From: Minisyncoccota bacterium
GTDB taxonomy: Bacteria > Patescibacteriota > Minisyncoccia > Phycocordibacterales > UBA9973
Direction: 5' to 3'
Assembly (NCBI GenBank): GCA_035510575.1
Contig: DATKGV010000008.1
Coordinates: 4,618-68,617, forward strand
DNA: 64,000 bases
Below are positions 7,964-61,585 of this stretch, one piece after another. The notes under the pieces are model-generated. The model was not told the DNA's origin and made no database searches. It saw nothing but the letters and a program-made list of their open reading frames with translations. The position numbers and the translations under genes were made by a program. Position 1 is the stretch's first letter, and every line of letters begins with the position of its first letter.

Positions 7964-8042
7964 AACACCATTATATCAAAGTATAAATAAAATACCTTAT
8001 AATCACTTTGAACGATCGTCTAATTAGGTTATAATAAGAAAT

Positions 8043-23210: not shown

Positions 23211-23250
23211 CCACTAGCAAGAACCACTAGCAAGAACGGTTCTAGCTAGT
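23211..23250. repeat. REP-like palindromic repeat at the 3' side of the RAYT gene (one full 26-bp unit, 23225-23250, plus an upstream half unit)
   Basis: 'CCACTAGCAAGAAC|CACTAGCAAGAACGGTTCTAGCTAGT'. The unit forms a roughly 12-bp hairpin (ACTAGCAAGAAC / GTTCTAGCTAGT). Confidence 0.7.
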
Positions 23251-23928
23251 GGGTTCTATTATAAAATAATTCTCTATAAAATCTTTAAAAGATTGCTGTG
23301 ATTGGAAATAATCGGGAAATGCTTTTTTATTTAAAATATTACTTTCTATTCTGTCTGTGCCTATATAATCTTGATAACTGGAATATCTGTATGTTTCTAG
23401 AAAATCTTTCATTTCTTTATTATTTTTGTCTTTGTCTTTATCTTGTTTTTCCCAACCTGAAAACTTAATATCAAGTACATTTAGATGAATATATGCAAAA
23501 AGCTGCCGCATATAGTTATCATCTGCTTTTATACATTTTGATTTAAAGAGTCCGCCAAACAAAGCTCCTTGTCTTTGGTATTTTTTGTTAAAAAACATTG
23601 AATATCCTACACCTATCTTCCTCATGAACTTTGTTATTCCTCCATCTACTTCCTGCTTAACTAATATATGAAAATGATTATTCATAAGGCACCATGCGCC
23701 AATAGAAACTAGCGGCTCGCTTTTATTTAAGATCATTATTTCTTCATATCCCTTATGAAGAATATTTATTAAATTATCTAGTTTAATTGCTTCCTTATTA
23801 TTTGCAATATATAAAAGCATTTTAAATCTCTCGAAATCTCTTTCAAGCTTAAAAATGACTCTTTTATCTATACCCCTATTATAGATATGATAATATTCAC
23901 CGGTTATGAATGAATCTTTGCGAAGCAT
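23242..23928 (-). CDS. IS200/IS605-family Y1 (HUH) transposase, REP-associated tyrosine transposase (RAYT)-like
   Basis: 228 aa with 'YYHIYNRGIDKRVIF', HUH motif 'NHFHILV' and the catalytic-Tyr region 'AYIHLNV' (YIHxNP-type). Flanked on both sides by the same palindromic repeat. Confidence 0.65.
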   Translation of the reverse strand: MLRKDSFITGEYYHIYNRGIDKRVIFKLERDFERFKMLLYIANNKEAIKLDNLINILHKGYEEIMILNKSEPLVSIGAWCLMNNHFHILVKQEVDGGITKFMRKIGVGYSMFFNKKYQRQGALFGGLFKSKCIKADDNYMRQLFAYIHLNVLDIKFSGWEKQDKDKDKNNKEMKDFLETYRYSSYQDYIGTDRIESNILNKKAFPDYFQSQQSFKDFIENYFIIEPTS

Positions 23929-24123: not shown

Positions 24124-24156
24124 AAAACCGCCCCATCAAACATAGGGGCGGTTTTT
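24124..24156. terminator. bidirectional Rho-independent terminator (AAAAACCGCCCC...GGGGCGGTTTTT)
   Basis: GC-rich 7-bp stem flanked by A-run and T-run. Followed by a second palindrome TAGCAAGGACCGTCCTTGCTA (24161-24181) related to the REP core. Confidence 0.6.
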
Positions 24157-24200
24157 GATTTAGCAAGGACCGTCCTTGCTAATCTGTAGCTTTAGCTTTT

Positions 24201-29482: not shown

Positions 29483-29570
29483 ACTGCCATTATTGTACCA
29501 TATATAATAATTTATAAACACAAATCAAAGTTATTTTGCGGTGTGGAAAACTATTTTTCTTTGTATTAAT

Positions 29571-29625
29571 CTCCCCCTGCCAAGGGGGAGATGCCGGAGG
29601 CAGAGGGGGTTGTATTAATTAATTT
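29571..29625. repeat. GC-rich repeat element, partial copy A (first hairpin only)
   Basis: CTCCCCCTGCCAAGGGGGAGATGCCGGAGGCAGAGGGGGTTGTATTAATTAATT in the divergent promoter region between the 27890-29482 gene and nusA. Confidence 0.7.
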
Positions 29626-29761: not shown

Positions 29762-30934
29762 ATGTTAGACCTAAAAACAATGAGGTCGGCTCTGGAACAG
29801 CTTGAAACGGAGCGCAAGATACCTCGCGAGAAGATTATAGACGCGATTGAGCAAGCCCTGGCCGCCGCCTACAAGAAGGACTACGGCAAAAAAGGCCAGA
29901 TAATCCGCGCAAAAATAGATATTGAAACGGGTAAGACGGAGTTTTATCAAGTTAAAATCGTTGTCGACGAATCGCTTGTGCGAATGACGAAAGAAAACGA
30001 GGAAGAGGAAGAGATTGCCGAAGACGACGATCGCGTCCGCTACAATGAAGAGCATCATATCCTCCTTTCCGATGCCAAGAAAATAAAAAACGGCGCCAAA
30101 CTTGAAGAAGAAATAATTTTCCCGCTTGAAACCAAGGAGGACTACGGGCGCATTGCCGCTCAGACGGCCAAGCAGGTTATCATACAGAAGATTCGCGAAG
30201 CGGAGCGCGGCGCTGTCATTGAAGAATACGGGAGCAAGGAAGGCGAAATTATCAACGGAATTATTTCAAAAGTTGAAAGAGGCATCGTTTATATTGACTT
30301 CAATCGCGCAACTGGAATAATCCTGCCCGAAGAGCAGATTCCCGGCGAATTTTATAAGCGCGGAGAGCGAATTCGCGCCTATTTGTATTCCGTTGAAGAG
30401 ACGCCTCACGGCGTAAATCTCAAGCTTTCCCGCACTCATCCTCAATTCATTGAAGGATTATTCGCCATGGAAGCTCCCGAAATAGCATCAGGTGTCGTAG
30501 AAATAAAAGCGATTGCTCGCGAAGCAGGTTCACGTTCTAAGATTGCCGTATATTCAAATGACGAGCATGTTGATCCGGTCGGATCATGCGTCGGACAGAG
30601 AGGAGTTCGCGTAACGACAGTCATGAGCGAATTGAACGGCGAGAAAATAGATATTATCCCATGGTCGCCCGATATCGCCCAGTATGTTTCAAATTCAATC
30701 TCGCCGGCTCGAGTCCTTGATATAAATATAATTGACGAAGAGCATAAAGCCATAGTTGAAGTGGCGCCCGATCAATTGTCGCTTGCCATCGGCAAAGGCG
30801 GGCAGAATGTGCGCCTGGCCGCAAAATTAACCGGCTGGAGAATAGATATCAAAGCCGGCAATTCCGAAGAAATTATTTCAAGCGAAAATGATATACTGGA
30901 TGATGGCATCGTGGATGATGGCACAGATGCGTAA
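29762..30934 (+). CDS. nusA: transcription termination/antitermination factor NusA
   Basis: 390 aa with N-terminal NusA domain, S1-like and tandem KH regions ('LAIGKGGQNVRLAAKLTGWRIDI'). Confidence 0.85.
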   Translation: MLDLKTMRSALEQLETERKIPREKIIDAIEQALAAAYKKDYGKKGQIIRAKIDIETGKTEFYQVKIVVDESLVRMTKENEEEEEIAEDDDRVRYNEEHHILLSDAKKIKNGAKLEEEIIFPLETKEDYGRIAAQTAKQVIIQKIREAERGAVIEEYGSKEGEIINGIISKVERGIVYIDFNRATGIILPEEQIPGEFYKRGERIRAYLYSVEETPHGVNLKLSRTHPQFIEGLFAMEAPEIASGVVEIKAIAREAGSRSKIAVYSNDEHVDPVGSCVGQRGVRVTTVMSELNGEKIDIIPWSPDIAQYVSNSISPARVLDINIIDEEHKAIVEVAPDQLSLAIGKGGQNVRLAAKLTGWRIDIKAGNSEEIISSENDILDDGIVDDGTDA

Positions 30935-30962
30935 AAATTATTAATAATTAATAAAAATTTAT

Positions 30963-33029
30963 ATGAATCCTTTCATTATTTTTGCTCTTGTTTCCTCAAT
31001 TGTCGCAATATTATACGGCCTGTTTCTGATAAAAATCGTGATGAAAGAAGGCGCGGGCGACAAGAAAATGCAGGATATCGCTTCGGCCATACAGCAAGGC
31101 GCAAAAGCATATTTAAATCGCCAATATAAGACAATCGGTATTATCGCTCTTATTTTATTTTTAATAATCGGCTTTATCCCGATGCTCGGGTGGATGATGG
31201 CTATCGGTTTCTTGACTGGAGCCGTATTATCAGCATTGGCTGGATATATAGGCATGAACGTTTCAGTTCGCGCCAATGTCCGCACGGCCGAAGCCGCAAA
31301 GAAAGGTCTTAAGGAAGCGCTTGGTCTTGCGTTCAAAGGAGGCACAGTTACAGGACTTCTTGTAGTTGGACTCGCCCTTTTAGGTGTAACTTTATTTTAT
31401 ATAATTGCGGAAAAATTTGTCGGTGGCGGAGCTGTCCGCTCTCTTGTCGGATTATCTTTCGGAGCAAGCTTAATTTCTGTCTTTGCTCGTCTTGGCGGCG
31501 GCATATTTACCAAAGCAGCCGACGTCGGCGCCGATTTAGTCGGCAAGGTTGAAGTCGGTATTCCTGAAGATGATCCTCGCAATCCCGCCGTTATTGCCGA
31601 CAATGTCGGAGATAATGTCGGCGATTGCGCAGGCATGGCAGCGGACTTATTTGAGACCTACGCCGTGACATCCGTTGCCACGATGCTGCTCGGGTCGCTC
31701 ATTTTCTCAAACTGGAGCAATGCCGTAATTTTTCCTCTGGCTATCGGAGGCATGGCGATACTCTGTTCCATTATAGGCACATGGTTTGTTCGCTTAGGTA
31801 AACCTGCCCGCCCTCACGATGTTTCGGGAGCAGGCGGGAATAATAATATCATGGGAGCTTTGTATAAGGGCCTCATAGTTTCCGGCATACTATCAGCGAT
31901 TGGATTTTATCCTATAACAAAGTGGCTCATGTCTGGGCAATCAATTTATTCTGTCGGCGCTCTTTACGTTTGCGCATTAGTTGGAATATTTGTCACAGCT
32001 ATGATTATAGTTGTAACTGAATATTATACTTCCACAAAATACAATCCTGTTAAATCAATCGCCTATGCATCGCAATCAGGTCACGGCACAAATGTCATTC
32101 AAGGTTTGGCTATTTCAATGAAATCCACAGCTTTGCCTCTTATCGCCATTGTTGTTGGAATATTAGTTTCATATCATTTCGGCCAACTTTACGGAGTTGC
32201 GGTTGCCGCCATGTCCATGCTTTCTTTAACTGGAATAATAGTTGCAATTGATTCATTCGGTCCTATTACTGACAACGCCGGCGGAATCGCTGAAATGGCA
32301 AACTTGCCGGAAAGCGTCCGTGATGTGACTGATCCGCTTGATGCCGTCGGCAATACCACGAAAGCTGTTACGAAAGGTTACGCTATCGGTTCAGCCGGAC
32401 TTGCCGCTCTTGTTCTCTTCTCTTCATATACTCAAGAATTTTCTGATCTCGGGCATAAATTAAATTTTGATCTTGGTAATCCGCTTGTTATCGTCGGACT
32501 TTTAATCGGCGGACTTCTACCGTTTTATTTCAGCGCATTATGCATGGAAGCAGTCGGTAAAGCCGCCGGAAAAGTCGTTGATGAAGTTCGCCGACAATTC
32601 CGCGAGATTAAAGGAATCATGGACGGTTCTGGAAAACCGGATTATGCCAAATGTGTAGACATCGTTACCACTGGCGCAATCAAGCAAATGATTGTCCCAG
32701 CGCTTATTCCGGTTCTGACTCCGATTTTAGTCGGTTTCATACTTGGACCACAAGCTCTCGGTGGACTCCTCGTTGGATCTATTGTTACAGGAATCTTTCT
32801 TGCAATCTCAATGACATCCGGTGGTGGTGCATGGGATAATGCCAAGAAATATATTGAACTTGGAAATCACGGAGGCAAAGGAAGTGATGCTCACAAAGCA
32901 GCCGTTACAGGCGACACAGTTGGTGATCCTTATAAAGACACCGCTGGTCCTGCAATCAATCCGATGATTAAGATTCTAAACATCATCGCATTGCTATTGG
33001 TTCCAATATTAATAGCAATTTGGTTTTAA
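30963..33029 (+). CDS. hppA: membrane-bound H+/Na+-translocating pyrophosphatase
   Basis: 688 aa with about 16 TM helices. Conserved '[20 protein letters not shown]' and '[19 protein letters not shown]' PPase motifs. Confidence 0.9.
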
Positions 33030-33041
33030 TGCTCATTAGGA

Positions 33042-33082
33042 CAAGGACGGTTCTTAAGAGAGTTTCCCCAAGAACCGTCCTT
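33042..33082. repeat. 13-bp perfect inverted repeat AAGGACGGTTCTT...AAGAACCGTCCTT downstream of hppA
   Basis: Shares the GAACGGTTCT core with the REP units at 23955-24116 and the palindrome at 24161-24181. Confidence 0.55.
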
Positions 33083-33094
33083 AATTACACATTA

Positions 33095-33122
33095 AAAAAT
33101 CCCTCAGTTGAGGGATTTTTTA
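33095..33122. terminator. bidirectional Rho-independent terminator AAAAAATCCCTC-AGTT-GAGGGATTTTTT
   Basis: Perfect 6-bp GC-containing stem flanked by A6/T6 runs, between convergent hppA and the 33138-33770 gene. Confidence 0.65.
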
Positions 33123-33137
33123 ATGCAAAGTTACAAA

Positions 33138-33770
33138 TTAAATCTTTTCATAACCAAGAAGACCATGAGTAGACTCACTAGTGTCTTTATTTATTATTTT
33201 ATTTTTTGCCCACTTCAACTCTTTTATATCAGAACCTACATTATTGGGATTAAAATCCCAATCACTCTCTTGATCATCAGAAACATTTTTATTTAAAAGT
33301 TCTTCAACTTTTTTAATTAATAACTTATCACTTATAGGTATTGTTTGTAATTTCATTAAAAGTTCATCATAAGCCATATTATTATCAAACTTTAAATCTT
33401 TTTTACCAATTTTTTCAGCATATCCAACAATATAATCAACTAATTGTTTGTCTTTCTTTAAATACCCTAATCTATGTTGAATATTATCAACCATTACACA
33501 AAAAGCGTTAAAAGAAAACATCTCAACATTAAATTTTTTATTAAGTTCATTTCGATATGATTTATCTTCTTGATCAAAACTCTTTCTTTCTTTTCCTGTT
33601 TCAAAAAATTTATCTGGGTCAACTTCTTTTAAAAATTCAAGTATTTTTTTCTTAGATCCTTCTTTTTGTAATCTAATTTCTTCTGGAGAAATACATTCAC
33701 TTATAATTTCTTTACTTAATTTATCAGAATCTTCAATTACTTCTTCCTTTTTATTTAATCCTTCATTCAT
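33138..33770 (-). CDS. acidic hypothetical protein
   Basis: 210 aa. No recognisable motif. Confidence 0.4.
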   Translation of the reverse strand: MNEGLNKKEEVIEDSDKLSKEIISECISPEEIRLQKEGSKKKILEFLKEVDPDKFFETGKERKSFDQEDKSYRNELNKKFNVEMFSFNAFCVMVDNIQHRLGYLKKDKQLVDYIVGYAEKIGKKDLKFDNNMAYDELLMKLQTIPISDKLLIKKVEELLNKNVSDDQESDWDFNPNNVGSDIKELKWAKNKIINKDTSESTHGLLGYEKI

Positions 33771-33893
33771 AAAATTTAGTTAATATTACTAATATGCCCA
33801 CATTCTACCCCCCCCCCAACGCATCTTGTCAATAAACTAGGTAACAATAATCTATTTCCACTGCCTTGCGCGATAGCGTAAAGTAATGGAAAG

Positions 33894-34394
33894 ATGTATA
33901 ATATAATTATGTCTTTAAAAAATGAAATTTTAGAAATATTGAATACTCCTAAATTTTACTATAAAGGAATTCCAATGAATGCCCTATTTTTACCTGCCCT
34001 AGACAGTTATAAACATAAAACAATTCAAAATAATTTTTATAATCTTAAAAAAGAAGGGTATATAGAAAAATCAAATGGAAAATTCATAATAAATAAAAAC
34101 GGTAAAAATTTTTTAGAAAAATCTAAAAAACCGCAATTAAAAATTTTCAAAAGTATGAAAAATAATAATCCTAAAAATCTGCTTCTACTTTATGATATTC
34201 CGGAAGATAAGAAAAAAGAGCGCGATTGGTTCCGCCGCACATTGATAAAATTTAGTTTTGTGATGATTCAAAAAAGTGTCTGGGTTGGGCCGTCTCCTTT
34301 ACCAAAAGAATTTATTGATTATACAAAATCAATAGGATTAAAAGATTCTATAAAAAGTTTCAAGTTGGAAAAAGGATATAATATACAAAAATAA
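33894..34394 (+). CDS. small putative DNA-binding protein, paralog B (same family as 8043-8525)
   Basis: Shares 'LLLYDIPEDKKKER..FRRTL..F.FVMIQKSVWVGPSPLPKEFIDY' with paralog A. Flanked by its own direct repeats. Confidence 0.5.
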   Translation: MYNIIMSLKNEILEILNTPKFYYKGIPMNALFLPALDSYKHKTIQNNFYNLKKEGYIEKSNGKFIINKNGKNFLEKSKKPQLKIFKSMKNNNPKNLLLLYDIPEDKKKERDWFRRTLIKFSFVMIQKSVWVGPSPLPKEFIDYTKSIGLKDSIKSFKLEKGYNIQK

Positions 34395-34493
34395 TTTCCA
34401 TTGTTGTACGCGATAGCGTAAGATAGTGGAAATTAAATAATTAATAATAATTAGTTTGAAAATAGTTTAATTTTAGTATAAGATGTAAAAATT

Positions 34494-35585
34494 ATGAAAA
34501 TAACAATAAAAAAGCTTGAAAAAAGCGAAGTGGAAATATTGGGCGTATTACCTGTGGCAGATTTTGAAAAGTATGAGGAGAAGGCTCTTAATATCATAAG
34601 TGAAAGAGTTGAATTGCCGGGCTTCAGAAAAGGTAAAGCTCCTATCGCAATGATAAAAGAAAATGTAAAAGAAATGGAATTATTGGAAGAAATGGCAGAA
34701 CAGGCGCTTTATGATAATTATCCAAAAATATTACAAGAGAATAAAATAGACGCTATCGGCCGACCACAAATCGCAATTACTAAAATTGCCAAGGGTTCCG
34801 ATTTGGAATTCAAAATATTAACGGCAGTATTGCCGGAGATAAAGCTTCCTGACTATAAAAAAATAGCTAAAGAAAAAAATAGTAGCAATGATTTCAAAAA
34901 AGAAATTGTAGTCGATGAAGCAATGGTTGAGAAAACAATTCTTGATTTACGCAAAATGCGAGCTGAGCAAGCACAACATAAGGATCATGAACATGTACCT
35001 GCCCGCCCTCACGATGTTTCGGGAGCAGGCGGGAAAGGAGAAACTCACGTTGAAATTCCTGAAAGCGAATATCCGGCGTTTGATGATGCTTTCGCCAAAA
35101 CATTCGGCGACTTTGCCAGCGCTGAGGCATTAAAAGAAAAAATTCGCGCCAATCTAAAAATTGAAAAAGAAACCGAGCAGAAAGACAAGCTTCGTCTTGC
35201 TATTGTTGAGGAACTTTTGAAACAATCAGAATGCGAAATTCCAGAAATTCTTATAGACAGCGAAGTTGAAAAGATTTTCTATCGTTTGGAAGCAGATATT
35301 ACAAATATGGGTTTCAAATTTGATGAATATTTAATTCAAATTAAGAAAACTGAAGAAGATTTGCGAAAAGAATGGCGACCTGAAGCAGAAAAGCGCGCCA
35401 AGCTTCAAATGATAATCCAGACAATTTCCGAAAAAGAAAATCTCAAAGCAACTGAAGAAGAAATTGAAAAGGAAGTGAATAACATCGTAACCATCTATAA
35501 GGATGCTGATCCAGCCCGCGCCCGCGCTTATGTGGAACAAATGCTTGAAAATGAAAAGGTCTTTGCATTTCTTGAGAAACAATAA
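34494..35585 (+). CDS. tig: trigger factor (short form)
   Basis: N-terminal ribosome-binding domain '[14 protein letters not shown]' and C-terminal chaperone arm. Immediately upstream of clpP as in many bacteria. Confidence 0.7.
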
Positions 35586-35602
35586 TCTGCTATAATAAAC
35601 TT

Positions 35603-36193
35603 ATGTTAATTCCTACAGTTATAGAAAAAACAATGAATGGCGAACGGGCATATGATATCTACTCTCGCCTTTTGAACGAGCGTATTATTTTCCTCGGTGG
35701 TCCGATAGATGACAATGTCGCCAATCTTGTTATCGCTCAGCTTCTTTATTTGGATCATACAGATTCAAAGAAAGACATTCACCTTTATATAAACTCCCCC
35801 GGCGGTTCAGTTACTGCAGGGCTCGCAATCTTAGATACTATGGGTTTTGTGAAAGCCGATGTCTCTACTATATGTGTCGGTATCGCCGCATCAATGGGCG
35901 CAGTTCTACTTTCAGCTGGTACAAAAGGTAAAAGATTTGCGCTTCCCAATTCTGAAGTTATGATTCATCAAGTTATGGGTGGCGCTGAAGGCCAGGCCTC
36001 AGATATTGCTATCAATGCCAAACATATTCTTCGTACGAAAGATACATTAAATAAAATTTTGGCAAAAAATACTGGCCAGACAGTTACACAAGTAGAGAAA
36101 GATTCCGACCGCGACAATTACATGACCGCCGATGAAGCCAAAAAATACGGAATCATAGACGATACGGTTACTAAAGCGAAAAATAATAAATAA
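35603..36193 (+). CDS. clpP: ATP-dependent Clp protease proteolytic subunit
   Basis: Ser-His-Asp catalytic context '[11 protein letters not shown]' and 'MIHQVMGG'. Confidence 0.9.
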
Positions 36194-36200
36194 CCAATTC

Positions 36201-36230
36201 AAAAAAATCTCCGTAATGGAGATTTTTTTG
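36201..36230 (+). terminator. Rho-independent terminator after clpP
   Basis: Hairpin ATCTCCGTAATGGAGAT followed by T7. Confidence 0.6.
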
Positions 36231-36437
36231 AAACTCGACAAAATTTATCTTTTGCTGTATTATGAAGTTATCGAATTTTAACAGATTAGTTACAGTGCTT
36301 TACTTTTAAATACATTACCAAGGTATGAATATCAACCAATACGAAACGAGCGTTATGTGTCCGAAGAAATATAATATAGAACGCATAGAATATCTGCCAA
36401 TGATATAGTGTTTTTAAGGGTAGTCCACTGCCCATTT

Positions 36438-37964
36438 ATGAGTTTAATAGCAATAATAATTTCCATTGCGGCCCTAGTAATAGGCGCCGGTGTCGGGTAT
36501 TATTTGCGGCTTGTTATTTCGCTTGGCAAGAAAGGTTCGATGGAACTTGAAATCAAGCAGATAATGCTCGGCGCAAAAGAAGAAGCCCAGAAAGTAATTG
36601 ACGAAGCCAAGAAAAAGGCCGAAGAAAGATTAATTGAATCTCAGAAAGAGACCAAATTAAAAGAAGAGGAATGGAAGCAGACAGAACACCGCTTGATTAA
36701 AAAAGAGGAGCTTCTTGACGCCCGCCAGACAGAAATTGACAAAGAAGTCGAGAATATAAAAATAAAAGTTGAAGAAGTAAAAAAGATTAAAGAGCGCGTG
36801 GATAATATGCAAGCCGAGAAAGAAAAAGAGGTTGAGAAAATAGCTCTTTTGTCCGCCGATGAAGCCAAAGAAATGCTATTTAAAAACATTGAAGATAAAT
36901 ACGAGGAGGACTTGCTCGTCAGAATGCAAAAAATGGAAACCTCTAATACCGAGAAACTTGATCGCCGAGCCAAAGACATACTTGCCGCTTCCATAAATCG
37001 CCTCGCCTCTTCAACGGCCTCTGAAATGATGACTACGTCGGTCAATATTCCGAACGACGATATAAAAGGGAAAATTATCGGCAAGGAAGGGCGCAATATA
37101 CGCGCGTTTGAACGAACAGCGGGAGTTGAGCTTATTATCGATGAGACGCCTGGAGCTATTGTCATATCTTCATTTGATCCGGTTCGCCGGCAAGTGGCTC
37201 GGCTGGCGCTTGAAAGTTTGATTCTTGACGGCCGCATTCAGCCCGCCAAAATAGAAGAAGTCGTGGCGAAATCGGAAGCAGATATAAATAAAATTATCAA
37301 AGACAAAGGAGATCAGGCAGTATATGAATGCGGGATATTCAATCTTGATCCGCGCATTACGGCCATCATCGGCCGGTTATATTTCCGCACCAGCTACGGG
37401 CAAAATGTTCTGCAACATTCTATTGAAATGGCCCACATTGCCGGAATGCTGGCAGAAGAACTTGGCGCAGATATTCAAATAGCCAAGGCCGGAGCTCTAG
37501 TTCATGATATCGGCAAAGCGCTGGATCATGAAGTTCAAGGCACTCACATAGATATAGGCATCAGAATATTGCAGAAATTCAATGCCGATCCTCGAATTAT
37601 CACAGCCATGAAGAGCCATCACGATGATACTCCGCATGAATCAATTGAAGCGGTTATCGTTCAAACAGCCGATATGATTTCAGGAGGTAGGCCTGGCGCT
37701 CGCCGTGACAGCGTTGAGAATTATATCAAGCGCTTGCAAGACCTTGAGGCCTTGGCAAAGAGCTTTGAGGGCGTGGAAAAGTCCTATGCCTTATCCGCTG
37801 GCCGTGAAATACGCATATTTGTCACACCGGAGAAGCTTGGGGATATTGAAGCCAAGAATATGGCTCGCGATATAGCCAAGAAAATAGAGCAAGAACTTAC
37901 ATATCCAGGCGAAATAAAGGTTACAGTCATTCGCGAAAATCGAATTATCGAATACGCGAGGTAA
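36438..37964 (+). CDS. rny: ribonuclease Y
   Basis: N-terminal TM helix, coiled coil, KH domain 'GKIIGKEGRNIRAFE', and HD domain 'HSIEMAHIAGMLAEELGADIQIAKAGALVHDIGK'. Confidence 0.8.
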   Translation: MSLIAIIISIAALVIGAGVGYYLRLVISLGKKGSMELEIKQIMLGAKEEAQKVIDEAKKKAEERLIESQKETKLKEEEWKQTEHRLIKKEELLDARQTEIDKEVENIKIKVEEVKKIKERVDNMQAEKEKEVEKIALLSADEAKEMLFKNIEDKYEEDLLVRMQKMETSNTEKLDRRAKDILAASINRLASSTASEMMTTSVNIPNDDIKGKIIGKEGRNIRAFERTAGVELIIDETPGAIVISSFDPVRRQVARLALESLILDGRIQPAKIEEVVAKSEADINKIIKDKGDQAVYECGIFNLDPRITAIIGRLYFRTSYGQNVLQHSIEMAHIAGMLAEELGADIQIAKAGALVHDIGKALDHEVQGTHIDIGIRILQKFNADPRIITAMKSHHDDTPHESIEAVIVQTADMISGGRPGARRDSVENYIKRLQDLEALAKSFEGVEKSYALSAGREIRIFVTPEKLGDIEAKNMARDIAKKIEQELTYPGEIKVTVIRENRIIEYAR

Positions 37965-37982
37965 ACTGTCAATCTTCTTAAT

Positions 37983-38130
37983 CCCTTGCCCGCACACTCA
38001 TTTTGCTGTAGCTTTTTTGTTCTGCCGATAGAAGATTTGCCTATTTGGGTATTTATTGCTTAATATATAAGGTATTATTATTCTTTATATTGAAAAAGCA
38101 GAATAACAGCAAAATGAGTGTGCGGGCTTG
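37983..38130. repeat. 22-bp perfect inverted repeat (GCCCGCACACTCATTTTGCTGT) flanking a 96-nt AT-rich core; MITE-like or large RNA hairpin between rny and hup
   Basis: Left arm 37988-38009 and right arm 38106-38127 are exact reverse complements. Confidence 0.6.
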
Positions 38131-38254
38131 TATTAAAATAAGCTTGGTATATAATAACATCATACCTATTTATTAGGGATCGTTTGCAAACGGTCGAATA
38201 TTATTCAGATAGTGTTCTCATTTTTTGAAAGAAAATTTTGAGAAAGCAAAATAA

Positions 38255-38527
38255 ATGAATAAACAAGCATTAGTAGAACTCGTTCATGAAAAAATCGGCG
38301 GTACGAAAGTGCAGGCTGAAGAGGTTGTGAACGTAATATTTGATTCAATCGTCAGCACTTTGAAGAAAGGCGACGAGGTATCAATTGCAGGTCTTGGCAT
38401 TTTCTCAGTCAAAGCGCGCGCGGCTCGCATGGCTCGCAATCCAAAGACCGGGGAACAAGTCAAGGTTGCTGCAACAAAAGTTCCAAAGTTTAGAGCAGCG
38501 AAAGCTCTCAAAGACGCTGTAAAATAA
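38255..38527 (+). CDS. hup: DNA-binding protein HU
   Basis: 90 aa with the HU arm motif 'GLGIFSVKARAARMARNPKTGEQVKV'. Confidence 0.85.
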   Translation: MNKQALVELVHEKIGGTKVQAEEVVNVIFDSIVSTLKKGDEVSIAGLGIFSVKARAARMARNPKTGEQVKVAATKVPKFRAAKALKDAVK

Positions 38528-38543
38528 TTTAATATTACAGATT

Positions 38544-38579
38544 AAAAAACCGCTCTATTCTATCTATGAGTGGTTTTTT
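38544..38579 (+). terminator. Rho-independent terminator after hup
   Basis: AAAAAACCGCTC...GAGTGGTTTTTT. Confidence 0.5.
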
Positions 38580-38610
38580 AATGCGTGAACATCGCCAGCT
38601 GACGGATTAT

Positions 38611-39333
38611 TTAAAATAATCTAGTAATAAGAAAAATAAACAAAACACCAAGCACAGTCATGCCGACAGTTTTCAATGATGAGTTCTTGCTGTGAGCTTC
38701 AGGTAAAATATCAGAAACGCCTATATAGAGCAAAAATCCGGCAAAAAATCCAAGATACATTAATAGGGTCTTTTCAGATAAGGCGAAAAAAAGCGTTGAG
38801 AGGCCGCCAAATACCGGCGCAATTGCATCTATGAAAAGAAATTGCAGAGCTTTTTTGTCGGTATTTTTATGGCGGATCATTAATGAAACAGTATTCAGGC
38901 CATCGCAGAAATCGTGCGATATGACGGCAATAGCTATAAGAATGCCAGTCGGTCCGGATATTTGGAATCCAAGGCCAATGCCAACTCCATCAATAAATGA
39001 ATGTCCCGCAAGAGCAAGCGCTTGGAACTTCCCTATCGTCGGATGAGTGTGAGGACCATATTCATCTTCATGCGCATGGTGAACAAGCAAGAATTTTTCT
39101 GCGACATGAAAAATAATAAATCCGGAAACAAGTGCAATCATCGGATACGTCGAATTGACTGAAAGCATTCCGGTTAATTTTATGATCTCCGGGAAAATAT
39201 CAAAAGCAATAACGCCGAGTATCACTCCAGCAGTAAGACCCAAGATAAGATGCATTTTGTCCTTATATTTCAAGCCAAAAAGGCCTCCGAGAAAGGTAGA
39301 AACAAATGTAAAAAATATAAATATAAATTGCAT
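38611..39333 (-). CDS. ZIP-family zinc/metal transporter (ZupT-like)
   Basis: 240 aa with eight TM helices and the 'HSFIDGVGIGLGF' and 'HDFCDGLN' ZIP signatures. Confidence 0.75.
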   Translation of the reverse strand: MQFIFIFFTFVSTFLGGLFGLKYKDKMHLILGLTAGVILGVIAFDIFPEIIKLTGMLSVNSTYPMIALVSGFIIFHVAEKFLLVHHAHEDEYGPHTHPTIGKFQALALAGHSFIDGVGIGLGFQISGPTGILIAIAVISHDFCDGLNTVSLMIRHKNTDKKALQFLFIDAIAPVFGGLSTLFFALSEKTLLMYLGFFAGFLLYIGVSDILPEAHSKNSSLKTVGMTVLGVLFIFLITRLF

Positions 39334-39334
39334 G

Positions 39335-39405
39335 TGCGGGACGGGAGAATCGGACTCCCGCCAACAGTTTGGAAAACTGTAGTTCTACCACTAAACTAGT
39401 CCCGC
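39335..39405 (-). tRNA. tRNA-Gly (anticodon UCC)
   Basis: Cloverleaf: acceptor GCGGGAC/GTCCCGC, D-arm with GG, anticodon arm ACAGT-TTTCCAA-ACTGT. Shares D and T arms with the tRNA-Gly(GCC) at 40644-40717. Confidence 0.6.
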
Positions 39406-39467
39406 CTTCGTTTTGCGCAGGCTTGCAGGCCCGCTTTGCAAAGTAATAAAACAATTTCCAGATATTG

Positions 39468-39541
39468 TCGGGGTGCCGGGATTCGAACCCGGAGTCGCCT
39501 GTTCCCAAAACAGGAATGTTAGCCGTTACACCACACCCCGA
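39468..39541 (-). tRNA. tRNA-Pro (anticodon UGG)
   Basis: Acceptor CGGGGTG/CACCCCG with the C1:G72 pair characteristic of bacterial tRNA-Pro. Anticodon loop TTTGGGA. Confidence 0.65.
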
Positions 39542-39550
39542 AAAACTAAT

Positions 39551-39621
39551 TCGGAGTGCCGGGAATCGAACCCGGTTCTCACGAACCCGAATCGCGTATA
39601 CTACCGGTGTACTACACTCCG
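39551..39621 (-). tRNA. tRNA-Pro (anticodon CGG), tentative
   Basis: Acceptor CGGAGTG/CACTCCG (C1:G72), T-arm CCGGG-TTCGATT-CCCGG, anticodon arm CGCGA-TTCGGGT-TCGTG. Confidence 0.5.
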
Positions 39622-39667
39622 ATTGGACTCAATAATATTAGCATATTTTTAATTAAAAACAATTAAA

Positions 39668-40093
39668 TTATAAAATAATATTATCTATTGTTTTCACGCG
39701 GGCTTTTTTTTGTTTGAGATCAAGATACACAAGTAATAGATCAAATTGCCAAGGAGTGTTCCCTATTCTTTTATGAATTAAATATGTTTGAATTGTCCGT
39801 GAAAGCCGTTTCATTTTCCAAGGATGCATATTTTCTTCAGGCCTTGATATGAACGGATTGGTTTCTCGTGTAACATCGCATGCCTGCCCGCCAACATTTA
39901 CTAATGGGCGGGAAACGGACTTAACTTCTATAAAATATATTTTACCCTCTTTCTCCGAAATAATATCAATCTCACCCCATTTTTTAGTATAATTTCTTTC
40001 TAACACAGAAAAACCTTTACTAATAAGATGTTTACAAGCTATATCTTCTCCCAATTGCCCTATTTTTTGAGAATTTGAAGTAAATTTTTTCAT
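39668..40093 (-). CDS. yraN: YraN-family (UPF0102) endonuclease
   Basis: 'GEDIACKHLISKGFSVLERNY...GEIDIISEKEGKIYFIEVKSVSRP' matches the YraN/Holliday-junction-resolvase-like fold. Confidence 0.6.
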   Translation of the reverse strand: MKKFTSNSQKIGQLGEDIACKHLISKGFSVLERNYTKKWGEIDIISEKEGKIYFIEVKSVSRPLVNVGGQACDVTRETNPFISRPEENMHPWKMKRLSRTIQTYLIHKRIGNTPWQFDLLLVYLDLKQKKARVKTIDNIIL

Positions 40094-40396
40094 ATATGTT
40101 TCACATGAAACGTTATATATATATATAAAAGACAATGGATTGTCCTTTATATATAATATCCTTATTATATCAACTTATTTCTGTAAAATAGCAATTTTAA
40201 CTTTCAAAAATCTTTTAATTATTGGTGTCTTTTATAAACAATGCACACATAGTTATCCACATAAATCTTAATTTTAAAGGTTTTTTAATGTGTATAAAGG
40301 ACTAATAAAGGTCAAAAAGAAATTTGTGTGGTCACAAGTATTTTTCTACTAAAAAATCTCGCGACCCCGCCTCGGTTCGTCAACCTCCGGCTTGCA

Positions 40397-40440
40397 CAAA
40401 TTATTAAATTAAATACTTTTAATTTAATAATTTGTGCACC
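40397..40440. repeat. perfect AT-rich 20-bp-stem palindrome GCACAAATTATTAAATTAAA...TTTAATTTAATAATTTGTGC directly 3' of tRNA-Arg
   Basis: Generates the mirrored spurious ORFs 40312-40497(-) and 40328-40510(+). Probable terminator or processing hairpin. Confidence 0.55.
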
Positions 40441-40506
40441 TACCAGGACTCGAACCTGGAACATCTGCTTCGAAGGCAGGTATGATATCCATTTCACTAT
40501 AGGTGC
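40434..40506 (-). tRNA. tRNA-Arg (anticodon UCG), tentative
   Basis: Acceptor GCACCTA/TAGGTGC, T-arm CCAGG-TTCGAGT-CCTGG, anticodon loop CTTCGAA with U33. Confidence 0.5.
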
Positions 40507-40643
40507 ATAAAACTATAAATCATTATACATAAATAATCATTATTTACAAAATATGTTTACAGATTAAGGTTAAAAATAAATTGCATTTAATCATTAAAAA
40601 TATTATAATCCAACTCAGGTTGTAATTTTATTAATAAAAATAT

Positions 40644-40717
40644 GCGGAATTGGTTTAGTGGTAGAACACGTCCTTGCCAAGGATGAGACAGGAGTCCGAT
40701 TCTCCTATTCCGCACCA
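40644..40717 (+). tRNA. tRNA-Gly (anticodon GCC) with encoded CCA
   Basis: Acceptor GCGGAAT/ATTCCGC, anticodon arm CGTCC-TTGCCAA-GGATG, 3' CCA present. Confidence 0.65.
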
Positions 40718-40724
40718 AATTTTT

Positions 40725-42446
40725 ATGGCTGATAAGCCAATCATAAACAATTCAAAAATACCATCTTATGTTACACATGTAACAGAAACACTCAAAAATG
40801 CTGGTTTTGAGAGTTTTCTTGTGGGTGGCTGCGTTCGTGATCTTATACTTAATAAGGAACCAAAGGACTGGGATATTACAACAAATGCTAAACCTGAAGA
40901 AATAATAGCTTTATTTGAGAAAACCGTATATGAAAATACTTTTGGAACAGTGGGGGTGTTTATTCTTGATGTTTCGCATGAAACAAAGGAAGATGTTACA
41001 CGTGTAACTAATAATGATGTTAATCCCGCCGACGGATTACCTGTGGCGGGCAGGCATGAAACAGATAGGGATGTTACACGGGAAACACCTCAATATAATA
41101 TAGTTGAAGTTACACCATATAGGATTGAAGCAAAATATAGCGATTTTAGGCACCCAGATAAAGTTAAATTCAGTGAAAACGTTGAAGATGACTTAAAAAG
41201 ACGTGATTTTACTATAAATGCTATGGCATATGATTCTGATAAAGGACATTTAATGGACTTATTTGATGGGATAAAGGACATAAAGGACAAAGTGATAAGA
41301 GCGGTAGGGAAGCCGAGCGATAGATTTAATGAAGATGCATTGCGAATGCTTCGAGCTATCAGGTTTTCCACACAATTAAATTTTGTAATTGAATATGACA
41401 CGATGCAAGCAATTGTGGATAACTCTCATTTGTTAAAAAATATTTCTGAAGAAAGAATTCGTGATGAATTTATAAAAATTATTGAATCAAAAAATTCTGC
41501 AATGGGAATTGGAATGTTATCAAAATTAGGATTACTAAAATATATTATTCCAGAACTTGAAGAGGGAATTGGCTGTGTTCAAGGAGGAGCTCATACTCTT
41601 GATGTGTTTGAACATTTATTAAAAGCGCTTGAATATGCTTCAGATAAAAATTTCTCAATTGAAATTAGATTGGCTGCATTATTTCATGATATTGGAAAGC
41701 CAAGATCAAGGAGAAATAATGCAGGATTTATAGAACCAGAAACCAATTTATCAGGTCCTCGGATCTCCTCGCTTATAGCTCGGCCAGACCATGCTAAATT
41801 AGTTTCTGGTTCAAAAAATTTAAAGAAAAAATACACATTCTATGGCCATGAAGTTGTTGGTGCAAAAATGACACAAAAAATTTTGGATCGATTAAAATTT
41901 CCAAAAAAGATTTCTGATTTAGTTGTGTCGATGATTCGCAATCACATGTTCTTCTCTGATACAGAACAGATTACACTTTCTGCAGTGCGTCGTATTGTGC
42001 AAAAAGTTGGACCCTCCGACGCTAAAGCTTTGGCGGGCAGGAAAGAAAATTATCCAATTTGGGATTTAATGAAAGTTAGAGAGTGTGATAGAGCTGGAAT
42101 GAAGAAAAGTGAATCACCTTATCGCTTGCGAAAATATTACGCCATGATTGAAGAAGTACTACACGATCCGATTTCTGTCGGCCAACTTGCTATTGATGGG
42201 GAAGTATTAATAGGTGAGTTACACATGAAACCATCGCCTCGTATGGGCTGGATTTTACATGCCTTACTTGAAGAAGTCCTTGATGATCCAACAAAAAATG
42301 ATAAAGGACATCTAATGGACATTGCTAAATCATTAGATTTATTGGGGGATAATGAATTAAAAGCATTAGGTGAAAGAGGGAAGGAAGAAAAAGAAAAGTT
42401 AGAACAAGAAGAAATTAAAAGGTTACATGAGAAACATGGAGTATAA
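40725..42446 (+). CDS. cca: CCA-adding tRNA nucleotidyltransferase (poly(A) polymerase family head with HD domain)
   Basis: Pol-beta nucleotidyltransferase motif 'GGCVRDLILNKEPKDWDITT' and HD motif 'HDIGKP'. The ORF track start inside the tRNA is spurious, so the start is taken at 'MADKPII'. Contains a tandemly duplicated insertion (see findings). Confidence 0.75.
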   Translation: MADKPIINNSKIPSYVTHVTETLKNAGFESFLVGGCVRDLILNKEPKDWDITTNAKPEEIIALFEKTVYENTFGTVGVFILDVSHETKEDVTRVTNNDVNPADGLPVAGRHETDRDVTRETPQYNIVEVTPYRIEAKYSDFRHPDKVKFSENVEDDLKRRDFTINAMAYDSDKGHLMDLFDGIKDIKDKVIRAVGKPSDRFNEDALRMLRAIRFSTQLNFVIEYDTMQAIVDNSHLLKNISEERIRDEFIKIIESKNSAMGIGMLSKLGLLKYIIPELEEGIGCVQGGAHTLDVFEHLLKALEYASDKNFSIEIRLAALFHDIGKPRSRRNNAGFIEPETNLSGPRISSLIARPDHAKLVSGSKNLKKKYTFYGHEVVGAKMTQKILDRLKFPKKISDLVVSMIRNHMFFSDTEQITLSAVRRIVQKVGPSDAKALAGRKENYPIWDLMKVRECDRAGMKKSESPYRLRKYYAMIEEVLHDPISVGQLAIDGEVLIGELHMKPSPRMGWILHALLEEVLDDPTKNDKGHLMDIAKSLDLLGDNELKALGERGKEEKEKLEQEEIKRLHEKHGV

Positions 42447-42450
42447 GAAA

Positions 42451-42477
42451 AATAACCGACATAATCGGTTATTTTTT
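42451..42477. terminator. bidirectional Rho-independent terminator AATAACCGACATAATCGGTTATTTTTT
   Basis: 8-bp stem flanked by A/T runs between convergent cca and the 42476-43420 gene. Confidence 0.55.
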
Positions 42478-43420
42478 ATTTTTCAGGATTATTATAGTCC
42501 CAACCATGATGTTTATAATTTTCTTTTTTATCTTTATTTTTTGGTGTCTTAGGATTATGAAAAATGCCTCTTTCCATTGATTTTGTTATAGGATTATACG
42601 TAAATGACTTTAACCCTTCTATGTTTGGTAAAGATGCTTCTGATGTAGGAGTTATAGTTATTCCCCCATTTTCAACATTTCCTTTTTCTATTACATCTCC
42701 TATTAGTTCACTGTGTTGGTCTAATGGCTTTCCTATTGAAGCTTCTAGTGCGGACTGTTTTGCAAATAAATGCCTACCTTCTGGTTGATCAAGCAATGAA
42801 CGCTTTACCATTCCCTTGTAAGGTTCTCCTTTTTGCCACCATGTGCTATCCTTGCCAGATTTATCATTCTTTCTTATTTTTCCCATATCATTATGAATAA
42901 TCCAATTATCTAAATTATCTTCAGTTTCATTAAATTTATAAAATTGATCATTATTTATTGGCGTACTAGCATCTGAAACATTATATTTTTTTTGATATTT
43001 TAATTTTCTTTTAGAAGGATAAAGTTCATCAGGACGGGGCATAAAATCATAAGTGCTGTCTACAAGATCAAAACCCCCTTTAAATTTTCTAATATGATAC
43101 ATTCGGCCATCTTTTTGTAGATATTGTGAACCATAAACGTCAATTATCTTGGCTCCTTCAGGTAAAGAAGGAGTAAATCCTGAATAAGATTCATTAGGTG
43201 CAATTAGTTCTTCTTCTAATATACGATTAGCAGATAGATTATCTGCTAAAGTTTTATCCATTTTACTATTATCTAGTAATTTAGATAATAGTGTGGCTTT
43301 AAAATTAGGTGTATTTTTTATTAGTGTTCTAATTTTAGCCAAATTTGAAACTTTAGATTCCTTATCTAAAATAGATTCTTTTTTGGGGTCTTCCTTTTTT
43401 ATTAGATTAAAATTTTCCAT
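42476..43420 (-). CDS. Lys-rich hypothetical protein
   Basis: 314 aa. No recognisable motif. Confidence 0.4.
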   Translation of the reverse strand: MENFNLIKKEDPKKESILDKESKVSNLAKIRTLIKNTPNFKATLLSKLLDNSKMDKTLADNLSANRILEEELIAPNESYSGFTPSLPEGAKIIDVYGSQYLQKDGRMYHIRKFKGGFDLVDSTYDFMPRPDELYPSKRKLKYQKKYNVSDASTPINNDQFYKFNETEDNLDNWIIHNDMGKIRKNDKSGKDSTWWQKGEPYKGMVKRSLLDQPEGRHLFAKQSALEASIGKPLDQHSELIGDVIEKGNVENGGITITPTSEASLPNIEGLKSFTYNPITKSMERGIFHNPKTPKNKDKKENYKHHGWDYNNPEK

Positions 43421-44230: not shown

Positions 44231-44324
44231 CCTCGCCCCCTGCTAAGGGGGAGATGCCGGAGGCAGAGGGGGTGCATTAATTAATTCACCCCTCCTCAAT
44301 CCTCCCCTTGTTAAGGGGAGGAGG
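44231..44324. repeat. GC-rich two-hairpin dispersed repeat element, copy B
   Basis: CCTCGCCCCCTGCTAAGGGGGAGATGCCGGAGGCAGAGGGGGTGCATTAATTAATTCACCCCTCCTCAATCCTCCCCTTGTTAAGGGGAGGAGG. Near-identical to 61463-61549. Confidence 0.8.
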
Positions 44325-44334
44325 AACTCAAAAA

Positions 44335-45384
44335 CTATTTACTGTGAAATTTCTTATGAACATCGCGAAGCTGTTTGTCTGTTATATGAGTATATATCTG
44401 AGTCGTGGCAATATTCGCATGGCCTAACATCATTTGAACTGAACGAATATCTGCTCCATTTGAAAGCAAGTCAGTGGCAAATGAGTGGCGAATAATGTGA
44501 GGAGTAACTTTCTTTGAAATTCCGGCCTTTATCGCATAAAACTTTACGATACGCTCTATAGAACGAGGTGCGAGCCTGTTTCCCACCGAAGCAAGGCTTA
44601 GGTTTTTACCTAAGCCTTGCTTCGGTGAATTATGCGAATACTGAACAAAAAGTGGCTGATCCATATCTTTTCTAGATTTTAAGTAATTACGAATGGCATC
44701 TTTGGCACTATCAGACAGGAATACAACGCGAACTTTCTCTCCTTTACCGCGAATAGAAAATTCATCTTTTGATAAATCAATATCTCGATCAAGAGAACAT
44801 AATTCAGACAGACGCAATCCAGTTGAGAAAAATAATTCAAGAATGGCTTTATCACGCAGAATTCTTATTGTTTTGCTGGCAATGGAATTTTGAAGTCCTC
44901 GGATCTCCTCGCTATTACTTTCTTTGTTTTTTGAAATAGCTCGGCCAGACTTCAAAATTCCATTGCCAGCTTCACTCATATTGGGAGCATTAAGAAGTCT
45001 TGTTAATTCTTCAGCAGAGATTAAATCAAGCGAGCGCTCTTTTATCTTTGCCAGTTCTATCCTATCCGGCGAGAGGGAAGTTATGCCGCGCTTCATCAGA
45101 TATTTAAGAAACGAACGAAGCGCAATAAGATGATAATTTTGAGTGTTTTTCTTCAAAGTGCCGGCATGTTGCCCGCGAATTTTAACTCCGGGTTGGCGAT
45201 TCAAATATAATCTAAACTCCCGTATTTTGTCGTCAGTTATTCCATTTGGTTCGGAAATCTTGGCAAAGGCAAAAAATCTGGAAAGATAATAGTCATAATT
45301 ATTTACTGTCTTTAAGCTGTTGCCTTTCTCGATTTCCACATGTTCGAGAAATTCTCTTTTTAATTGTTCAATACGTGCTGCCAT
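44335..45384 (-). CDS. tyrosine site-specific recombinase XerC/XerD-like (with two in-frame palindromic insertions)
   Basis: C-terminal catalytic region 'HIIRHSFATDLLSNGADIRSVQMMLGHANIATTQIYTH'. The start is taken at the internal 'MAARIEQLKREF', typical of Xer N-termini. Confidence 0.7.
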   Translation of the reverse strand: MAARIEQLKREFLEHVEIEKGNSLKTVNNYDYYLSRFFAFAKISEPNGITDDKIREFRLYLNRQPGVKIRGQHAGTLKKNTQNYHLIALRSFLKYLMKRGITSLSPDRIELAKIKERSLDLISAEELTRLLNAPNMSEAGNGILKSGRAISKNKESNSEEIRGLQNSIASKTIRILRDKAILELFFSTGLRLSELCSLDRDIDLSKDEFSIRGKGEKVRVVFLSDSAKDAIRNYLKSRKDMDQPLFVQYSHNSPKQGLGKNLSLASVGNRLAPRSIERIVKFYAIKAGISKKVTPHIIRHSFATDLLSNGADIRSVQMMLGHANIATTQIYTHITDKQLRDVHKKFHSK

Positions 45385-61462: not shown

Positions 61463-61549
61463 CCTCGCCCCCTGCTAAGGGGGAGATGCCGGAGGCAGAG
61501 GGGGTGCATTAATTCACCCCTCCTCAATCCTCCCCTTGGCAGGGGAGGA
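61463..61549. repeat. GC-rich two-hairpin dispersed repeat element, copy C
   Basis: Greater than 90% identical to copy B. Located in the uvrD-rsmA spacer. Confidence 0.8.
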
Positions 61550-61585
61550 AAAACTCAATTTTTGAATAAATGCTAATATACAAAT

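Follow-up and report, generated by a model that had tools for sequence, protein, structure and literature searches.

The window analysed here, a stretch of 64,000 nucleotides (nt) on contig DATKGV010000008.1, comes from a metagenome-assembled genome (MAG) of Candidatus Paceibacterota (Patescibacteria) whose pyrophosphatase is 100% identical to the one encoded here, and includes an H+/Na+-pyrophosphatase gene, hppA (30963-33029), and a trigger factor gene, tig (34494-35585), both assigned with Pfam. Each of these two unrelated genes contains, in frame, the same hairpin rich in guanine and cytosine (GC), which is termed m1 below (Table 1). The preliminary description of this locus reported an identical 37-mer in the two genes; this 37-mer indeed occurs exactly twice in the window (31803-31839 and 34998-35034), while none would be expected by chance according to shuffled sequences, and the two copies are identical over 39 nt. 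Lining them up with copies from other genomes, whose flanks are unrelated, set the element itself at 36 nt (12 codons), CCTGCCCGCCCTCACGATGTTTCGGGAGCAGGCGGG, so that the repeated unit is one nucleotide shorter than first described. The 36-mer, with the core form CCTGCCCGCC…GGCGGG, has a GC content of 72% against about 39% for the window, which agrees with the earlier picture of a GC-rich insert in a genome rich in adenine and thymine (AT), and its stem-loop has a folding energy of about -18 kcal/mol. The same 12-residue peptide is encoded in both proteins.

When all copies found in this study are pooled, m1 belongs to a family whose members share the ends 5'-CCTGCCCGC(C) and (GCA)GGCGGG-3' around a variable interior of 0-21 nt, with total unit lengths of 18, 30, 33, 36 and 39 nt. 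The ends pair in either of two registers, as CCCGCC/GGCGGG or, via one G-T wobble, as CCTGCC/GGCGGG, and the inner segment is usually self-complementary.

Insertion sites, reading frame and position in the protein

The m1 copies are lineage-specific insertions. Among 120 close orthologues of hppA, 117 are without any insert and have a usual length of 676 amino acids (aa), compared with 688 aa in the window. In the closest relative (HppA identity about 92-94%), the contig encodes a pyrophosphatase of 676 aa and a trigger factor of 351 aa, and it is therefore shorter than the window by exactly 12 codons in each gene, the trigger factor of the window having 363 aa. Alignment with the 351-aa trigger factor orthologue P0121 gives a clean 12-codon insertion on the window side. 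At hppA, the empty site of the related locus L015 (GGA AAA / AAG AAA AAC) and the filled site of the window (GGT AAA / 36 nt / AAT AAT AAT) can be compared directly, and no target-site duplication (TSD) is seen between them. Likewise, repeated flanks were found at none of the 17 insertion sites examined, and the 17 flanks hold no conserved target motif beyond A- or purine-richness, which is expected because the linkers are rich in Lys and Glu. An identical peptide at the corresponding site of orthologues from distant lineages, which the preliminary description had named as the mark of an ancestral sequence, was not found.

The same positions have been entered more than once. The hppA gene of L010 carries a different, 30-nt family member at the very codon that holds m1 in the window, and that of L011 carries a 39-nt member one codon downstream; both units start with CCTGCCCG and end with GGCGGG. 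Each of the three insert-bearing hppA lineages has nearer relatives without an insert and, judging from these alignments, the loop appears to have received at least three independent insertions (of 30, 36 and 39 nt), the alternative being repeated precise loss. In the trigger factor linker, family members occupy at least five distinct positions (Table 1), and tig of L017 contains an 18-nt perfect palindrome, CCTGCCTGCGCAGGCAGG, which is read in another frame. Some of these copies are decayed. In the L014 tig copy, four of the six substitutions lower the GC content and most of them weaken the stem; since this copy has largely lost both its stem and its GC-richness, the hairpin is not maintained by the host.

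Every intragenic copy is free of stop codons and a multiple of three in length. Moreover, all 12 independent forward intragenic copies, which were found by methods without frame bias and comprise three in hppA, five in tig, one in the L003 protein, one in the L004 open reading frame (ORF) 7292-7999 and two in phage portal-like genes, are read in the frame CCT GCC CGC, giving a peptide of the form PAR…GG. If the frames were used equally, a single frame in 12 of 12 copies would have a chance of about (1/3)^11. The m1 36-mer is open in five of its six frames, one reverse frame holding a stop, and hydrophobic or Cys-rich peptides would result from its remaining forward frames. Such a bias would be expected from selection acting on a translated peptide, and it indicates that the inserts are probably translated within their host proteins.

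The inserts are located in disordered or variable loops, in hppA, tig and the UvrD-like helicase gene alike, a check that had been proposed for these three proteins. In the AlphaFold2 (AF2) model of the trigger factor, whose mean predicted local distance difference test (pLDDT) score is 84, the insert lies in a coil with pLDDT below 50 (residues 164-185). The trigger factor of this lineage consists of a ribosome-binding N domain and a C domain only, without a peptidyl-prolyl isomerase (PPIase) domain, and the PPIase position is taken by a His/Glu-rich disordered linker. The hppA copy falls in an alignment gap between transmembrane helices TM6 and TM7 of the Vigna pyrophosphatase and in a coil between two helices of an AF2 model of low confidence (mean pLDDT 57.7), of which the secondary structure alone was used; by the published topology of these pumps, the loop is presumably situated on the side opposite to the cytoplasmic active site. 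Both hairpins of the helicase gene stand in loops of variable length among 120 orthologues.

Copies in other genomes and phage contigs

The core of the element was found in two other Patescibacteria MAGs in a scan of one genome per species, and on five contigs in a metagenome scan. The exact 36-mer has five distinct sites in all across the public collections scanned, including those in hppA and tig (Table 1), and a family member also lies at an intergenic site in L010. The insert-bearing tig allele is present in independent assemblies of the Joint Genome Institute (JGI), and the copies in the alanine racemase gene (alr) and in a hypothetical membrane protein gene each recur in independent assemblies as well. 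These recurrences bear on the explanation that the repeats are local replication errors, through template switching or snap-back synthesis, or assembly artefacts. Palindromes can form by template switching, and the hppA copy is known from one assembly only; however, template switching copies local sequence, while here the same foreign GC-rich sequence stands in unrelated genes and genomes, and an artefact would not be expected to return in independent assemblies at tig, alr and the membrane protein gene. The probability of this explanation is close to negligible.

The alr copy lies in the opposite orientation to its gene, keeping the nucleotides of m1 and changing the peptide, and hence the conserved entity is the nucleic acid. 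Further, polynucleotide phosphorylase (PNPase) is only 57% identical between the window and the L003 genome, yet the 36-mer is 100% identical, third codon positions included; together with the decay of older copies, this identity points to recent spread between lineages. The same observations bear on the proposal that PAR…GG is a protein motif, selected or ancestral, with the nucleotide identity as a by-product. A single frame in all forward copies and the occurrence of PAR…GG across genes would fit such a motif, but the reverse copies give unrelated peptides from the same nucleotides, intergenic copies exist, third positions are as conserved as the others at 57% PNPase identity, and the motif is missing from most orthologues. 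The reverse and intergenic copies largely refute this proposal, which is now barely credible. In L004, the alanine racemase gene has two hairpins about 130 nt apart, at 912-941 (30 nt, upstream) and 1071-1106, both of which fall in alignment gaps against PDB 4y2w. The L004 ORF 7292-7999 also contains a copy in frame, PARNATHSVAGG, with additional GC-rich sequence after it.

Identical copies in distant genomes and the enrichment of CCTGCCCGCC might also be explained if this 10-mer, together with the hairpin, were a DNA-uptake or recombination signal that spreads by molecular drive in competent Patescibacteria, as do DNA uptake sequences (DUS) and uptake signal sequences (USS). The USS of Haemophilus lie in genes with a frame bias. 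In contrast, uptake sequences arise by point substitution and number about one per kb, whereas the window holds five exact copies of CCTGCCCGCC in 64 kb (eight within one mismatch, compared with 1.4 expected), and the family consists of clean, discrete insertions of 30-39 nt at about one per 12 kb in which the variable inner part travels with the ends. An uptake signal is thus very unlikely to account for the family.

Phage contigs also carry members. The exact element is missing from the cultured-phage and plasmid collections scanned, and the exact core is missing from IMG/VR. Most contigs returned by a degenerate scan of IMG/VR were GC-rich and were regarded as chance matches or other repeat families; nine hits, on low-GC contigs only, were accepted as family members. 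Among the low-GC phage contigs, L072 and L067/L075/L088 have members in portal-like genes and also encode a terminase-like protein. The L072 member (3344-3376) encodes PARTNQREAGG in frame close to the N-terminus of the portal-like protein, while that of L067 (1443-1478; also in L075 and L088) is at the C-terminal end, where it supplies the stop codon of the portal-like gene and overlaps the next ORF. In addition, five IMG/VR contigs of 48-53% GC (L028, L029, L037, L074 and L087) contain 18 copies of a 36-mer, CCTGCCCGCAATGCTTCGCAACGCGAGGCAGGCGGG, which is nearly identical to one Paceibacterota subfamily and sits inside a larger composite repeat, CTCTCACAGAGCCCACAGAG … TCTGTG…CTCTGTGAGAG. The contigs with this composite represent an organism of higher GC content, and hence the hairpin module also occurs outside Paceibacterota. 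The preliminary description suggested that the element would be a new family here; no match to an Rfam family was found, and the family is spread across Paceibacterota and extends to phage contigs.

Related hairpins and other repeats in the window

The pattern CCCGCC-N3-30-GGCGGG occurs six times in the window, compared with 0.02 expected. Whole elements fold better than shuffled sequences in most members; for the interiors alone, the excess of self-complementarity is modest (n=13, mean z -1.26, t about -2.9), the signal being strong in some members and absent in the 30-nt ones. At the gathering threshold, an Rfam scan of the whole window returned five tRNAs only, and a permissive scan of the element gave chance-level hits (E>3). 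Intrinsic terminators were also considered and rejected: none of the hairpins was called in a terminator scan of 30900-42500, their flanks are A-rich or mixed, and the true terminator-like sites of that region have AT-rich stems.

Hairpins in genes may serve the host, for instance as an mRNA stabiliser, an RNase site, an interdomain translational pause or a binding site for a DNA- or RNA-binding protein. The conserved ends, the G-T wobble on one strand only, the better folding of the forward strand in several members, the sense orientation of most intragenic copies and their recurrence at domain boundaries or loops (the tig linker and one hppA loop) would agree with a signal under host selection. 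Against this, four intragenic copies are antisense, the insert is dispensed with in close relatives, the stem is lost in older copies, identical copies stand in unrelated genes and in intergenic DNA, and neither covariation nor a terminator signature nor an Rfam match was found. A host-selected signal is accordingly considered unlikely.

The relatives of m1 in the window lie in the yraN, cca and uvrD genes (Table 1). The list given in the preliminary description was incomplete, in that it missed the yraN hairpin, the possible member at 42012-42041 in cca and the longer element in rsmA described below. The yraN hairpin is read as SRPLVNVGGQA in a loop that differs from that of the L015 orthologue with a net length difference of only 3 aa. 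A 17-nt module, GATGTTACACGRGAAAC, stands beside this hairpin (39861-39877) and on both sides of the cca hairpin (40992-41008 and 41070-41086), and the loop of the 36-mer, GATGTTTCGGGAG, resembles it; these similarities suggest that modules may be shuffled between elements.

In cca, encoding the CCA-adding enzyme, the in-frame relative previously placed at 41034-41063 is real, although its position is nine bases further upstream, and it forms part of a composite insert whose 33-nt direct repeats (40976-41008 and 41054-41086) contain GATGTTACACG. The composite accounts for about 27 extra residues compared with the L015 orthologue, and the Pfam match to PolyA_pol is split there. The weak hairpin at 42012-42041 is conserved in the L015 orthologue and may be either an ancient copy or native sequence. 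A further 33-residue segment of cca, NNAGFIEPETNLSGPRISSLIARPDHAKLVSGS (about 41722-41820), is missing from the L015 orthologue and is neither GC-rich nor an obvious hairpin. A cluster of five tRNAs lies at 39335-40714, and the listed cca ORF start (40674, TTG) overlaps the tRNA at 40644-40714, so that the true start is probably a downstream ATG (MADKP…).

The two hairpins of the UvrD/PcrA helicase gene are likewise real and in frame, as had been described, but they share a 12-mer, GCTCGCCCCGCC, and constitute a subfamily separate from the hppA/tig element. The first folds with -30.3 kcal/mol (z = -5.7) and encodes a peptide unique among the 120 orthologues, in a variable loop before the TFHS motif. 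At the second, the loop exceeds its common length by about 7 aa, and decayed-looking versions (GSARSAKG, ENARHATN) are present there in a few orthologues.

Table 1. Positions of the hairpin elements and associated features in the window, with copies at sites in other genomes
Feature	Gene or locus	Position	Strand	Remarks
36-nt hairpin m1	hppA	31803-31838	+	exact repeat; in frame, residues 281-292
Second identical m1 copy	tig	34998-35033	+	in frame, residues 169-180
30-nt member, CCTGCCCGCC-N14-GGCGGG	UPF0102/YraN gene (39668-40135, minus)	39883-39912	+	reverse to gene
Module GATGTTACACGAGAAAC (DVTRET)	beside yraN hairpin	39861-39877	-	3 matches vs 0.06 expected
Composite insert	cca (CCA-adding enzyme)	40976-41086	+	two 33-nt direct repeats flanking hairpin
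30-nt hairpin	cca composite	41025-41054		reverse-oriented
Possible old family member CCTGCCCGCCAAAGCTTTAGCGTCGGAGGG	cca	42012-42041	-	weak hairpin
34-nt near-perfect hairpin	UvrD/PcrA helicase gene (59479-61455)	59740-59773	+	in frame
22-nt hairpin, same subfamily	UvrD/PcrA helicase gene	61117-61138	+	in frame
Family 3, about 93 nt, triple hairpin	rsmA/ksgA (61586-62464)	61867-61959	-	in frame, full-length, inverted repeats
Family 3 copy	intergenic	44231-44335	+	full-length alignment with rsmA copy
Family 3 copy	intergenic, between uvrD and rsmA	61463-61560	+	full-length alignment with rsmA copy
Family 3 partial copy	intergenic	29568-29619	+	
IS200-like Y1 (HUH) transposase ORF		23242-23928	-	PF01797, 29.8 bits (cut-off 23); HFHIL and YIHLN motifs
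Exact 36-mer site	L003/L008/L009			N-terminal region of hypothetical membrane protein; same orientation and frame as in the window
Exact 36-mer site	L004/L005			alanine racemase (alr); opposite orientation, different 11-residue peptide
Exact 36-mer site	L006			short AT-rich contig, apparently intergenic
tig linker member	window copy	after HEHV		m1
tig linker member	L013	after EHK		different inner sequence
tig linker member	L014	after HEHK		m1 with six substitutions
tig linker member	L015	after NMTEE		m1 with two substitutions
tig linker member	L016	after EHAK		30-nt unit

A second, longer repeat, here called family 3, has three hairpins with CCCCCT/AGGGGG stems. Its copy in rsmA corresponds to residues 93-125 of the protein, which have no counterpart in an alignment with KsgA of B. 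subtilis. Related copies occur in L010 (about 4060-4170). The cca loop occupied by the hairpin composite in the window contains a different, family-3-like GC-rich fragment in L015, indicating that different element families accumulate in the same permissive loops.

The window also encodes an IS200-like Y1 transposase of the HUH class, flanked by four exact 25-nt hairpins, ACTAGCAAGAACGGTTCTAGCTAGT, one downstream and three upstream of the ORF (23226, 23956, 24006 and 24051). This layout resembles that of repetitive extragenic palindromes (REPs) with their REP-associated tyrosine transposase (RAYT), in a Patescibacteria genome. No link between this transposase and the GC-rich hairpins was found across the window together with some 130 kb of related loci, the flanking ACTAGCAAGAACGGTTCTAGCTAGT being unrelated to them. 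A repeat similar to ACTAGCAAGAACGGTTCTAGCTAGT in L009 is not adjacent to a transposase, and the Y1 ORF yielded no useful match when its sequence was searched against the PDB. The idea that two tuf copies flank the transposase was rejected, as the second ORF, of 400 aa, shows no relationship to EF-Tu. At about 24125-24160 there is a hairpin that resembles a bidirectional terminator.

A 39-nt partly palindromic motif, ATTTCCACTG…GCGCGATAGCGTAA…TGGAAA, is present directly upstream (33854-33892) and directly downstream (34394-34432) of a PaaX_M/Cas2-like ORF (33894-34394), which adjoins tig in relatives too and has a paralogous ORF at 8043-8525. This motif may be an operator or promoter.

Proposed mode of spread and comparison with known systems

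Taken together, the hairpins are probably selfish, non-autonomous miniature GC-rich palindromic elements that move, or have recently moved, within and between the genomes of Patescibacteria and their phages. The preliminary description had already read them as selfish palindromes colonising coding sequence, and their lineage specificity, their position in loops and the reverse copy with a different peptide support this reading. The element would insert as a discrete DNA unit in either orientation without target duplication, and most insertions would hit genes because the host genomes are tiny and gene-dense. The copies that survive would be those with a length divisible by three, without a stop and with the harmless Pro/Gly-rich PAR…GG frame, placed in a tolerant loop or linker; they would be transcribed and translated within the host protein and would then decay through AT-biased mutation. 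The mobilising step might be performed by an enzyme acting on single-stranded hairpins, such as a HUH/Y1 transposase supplied in trans as for REPs, and single-strand transposition as known for REPs and IS200/IS605 fits the dependence on a hairpin and the lack of a TSD. Alternatively, the elements might be copied by gene conversion after DNA uptake. Naming any specific mobilising enzyme remains doubtful, and the Y1 transposase of the window, without a link to the GC-rich hairpins, represents only a candidate class of such an enzyme. The members in portal genes suggest that phages could act as vectors.

Several points weigh against mobility. No transposition event and no polymorphism of filled and empty sites within a population was observed, and no cognate enzyme was identified, the sole Y1 transposase of the window being flanked by unrelated repeats. 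The copy number is low, with two exact copies and about three to four relatives in 64 kb and five exact-core sites across the collections scanned. The repeated hits on one hppA codon might also reflect a process that is site-specific or selected, in place of random insertion followed by filtering. Translation of the insert is deduced from its reading frame. The inner pairing of the short 30-nt members is weak and, among nine 36-nt members of one subfamily, 88% of the cells are paired and no covariation rises above shuffles; because this covariation count is uninformative, support for the hairpin rests on the comparison between subfamilies.

As a more tentative extension, the 36-nt hairpin could be one of the smallest horizontally transmissible elements, fitted to coding DNA by its length, its open frames and its flexible Pro/Gly peptide, and crossing between lineages more than 40% different in their core proteins and into phage structural genes by means of a hairpin-recognising enzyme. 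The genomes of Patescibacteria, also known as the candidate phyla radiation (CPR), rank among the smallest and most gene-dense in bacteria, and their mobile DNA has received little study. If the proposed reading is true, essential CPR proteins, here a pyrophosphatase, a trigger factor, a CCA-adding enzyme, a helicase and an rRNA methyltransferase, regularly gain insertions and vary in length through selfish hairpins, which has consequences for how these lineages are aligned, placed in phylogenies and annotated. The family would also offer a compact system for asking how a 36-nt element spreads between distant genomes and what renders a protein position tolerant of insertion, since one hppA loop and the tig linker have each been hit more than once. 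Moreover, the elements might be used to trace recent exchange of DNA among CPR bacteria that occur together in groundwater and the phages of these bacteria. Full-text literature searches found no paper on intragenic palindromic elements in CPR/Patescibacteria.

The REPs and their paired forms, REPINs and bacterial interspersed mosaic elements (BIMEs), are similar to the present family in being imperfect GC-rich hairpins of about 20-40 nt with a conserved stem, a variable loop and no TSD, and a RAYT-like gene is present in the window. In E. coli, an unpaired 5' tetranucleotide, GTAG, stands next to the REP stem; here, CCTG precedes the CCCGCC/GGCGGG stem in one register, and in the other register it pairs with GGCGGG. 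Unlike REPs, which are extragenic, number hundreds and are often paired, the present elements are mostly intragenic singletons of low observed copy number, and the Y1 ORF is flanked by ACTAGCAAGAACGGTTCTAGCTAGT instead of the GC-rich hairpin.

[quoted passage not shown] They differ, however, in their typical size of 100-400 bp and in having terminal inverted repeats, a TSD and a parent insertion sequence (IS), while the present element has about 36 nt and no TSD; its 6-nt ends, CCTGCC/GGCGGG, are complementary with one wobble, and no parent IS was found in the available sequence.

Rickettsia palindromic elements (RPEs), to which the hairpins were compared from the start, are palindromic repeats that lie in frame in unrelated housekeeping genes of a small AT-rich genome, where they are translated into an additional peptide at structurally tolerant positions, and also in intergenic DNA (Ogata et al. 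2000, via PMC10969869). The in-frame behaviour is shared, the in-frame or gene-internal hosts being hppA, tig, yraN, cca and uvrD in the window and alr and the membrane protein gene elsewhere. The size is not: RPEs have about 100-150 bp and add a conserved peptide of about 30-50 aa, whereas the present units of 18-39 nt (6-13 aa) are three to five times shorter, and only the rsmA copy of family 3 (about 93 nt) is RPE-sized. As far as a comparison by description goes, the family also differs from RPEs in its host, which belongs to Patescibacteria instead of Rickettsiales, in its identical copies in very distant genomes and in its members in phage contigs.

The GC clusters of yeast mitochondria, including those in var1 and the byp elements of Magnusiomyces, are likewise GC-rich palindromes, of about 30-50 nt, that insert in frame in an AT-rich compact genome (PMC8811140). 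They, too, have terminal sequences shared around variable or shuffled interiors and cause length polymorphism of proteins (PMC8811140). Their host is not bacterial, and their AG/TAG terminal repeats, read as TSDs, are not seen here; unlike for byp elements, which the ribosome bypasses, the strict frame and the lack of stops argue for translation of the present inserts. In its behaviour, the hairpin family of this window is thus like RPEs, REPs and yeast GC clusters, and it belongs to none of them.

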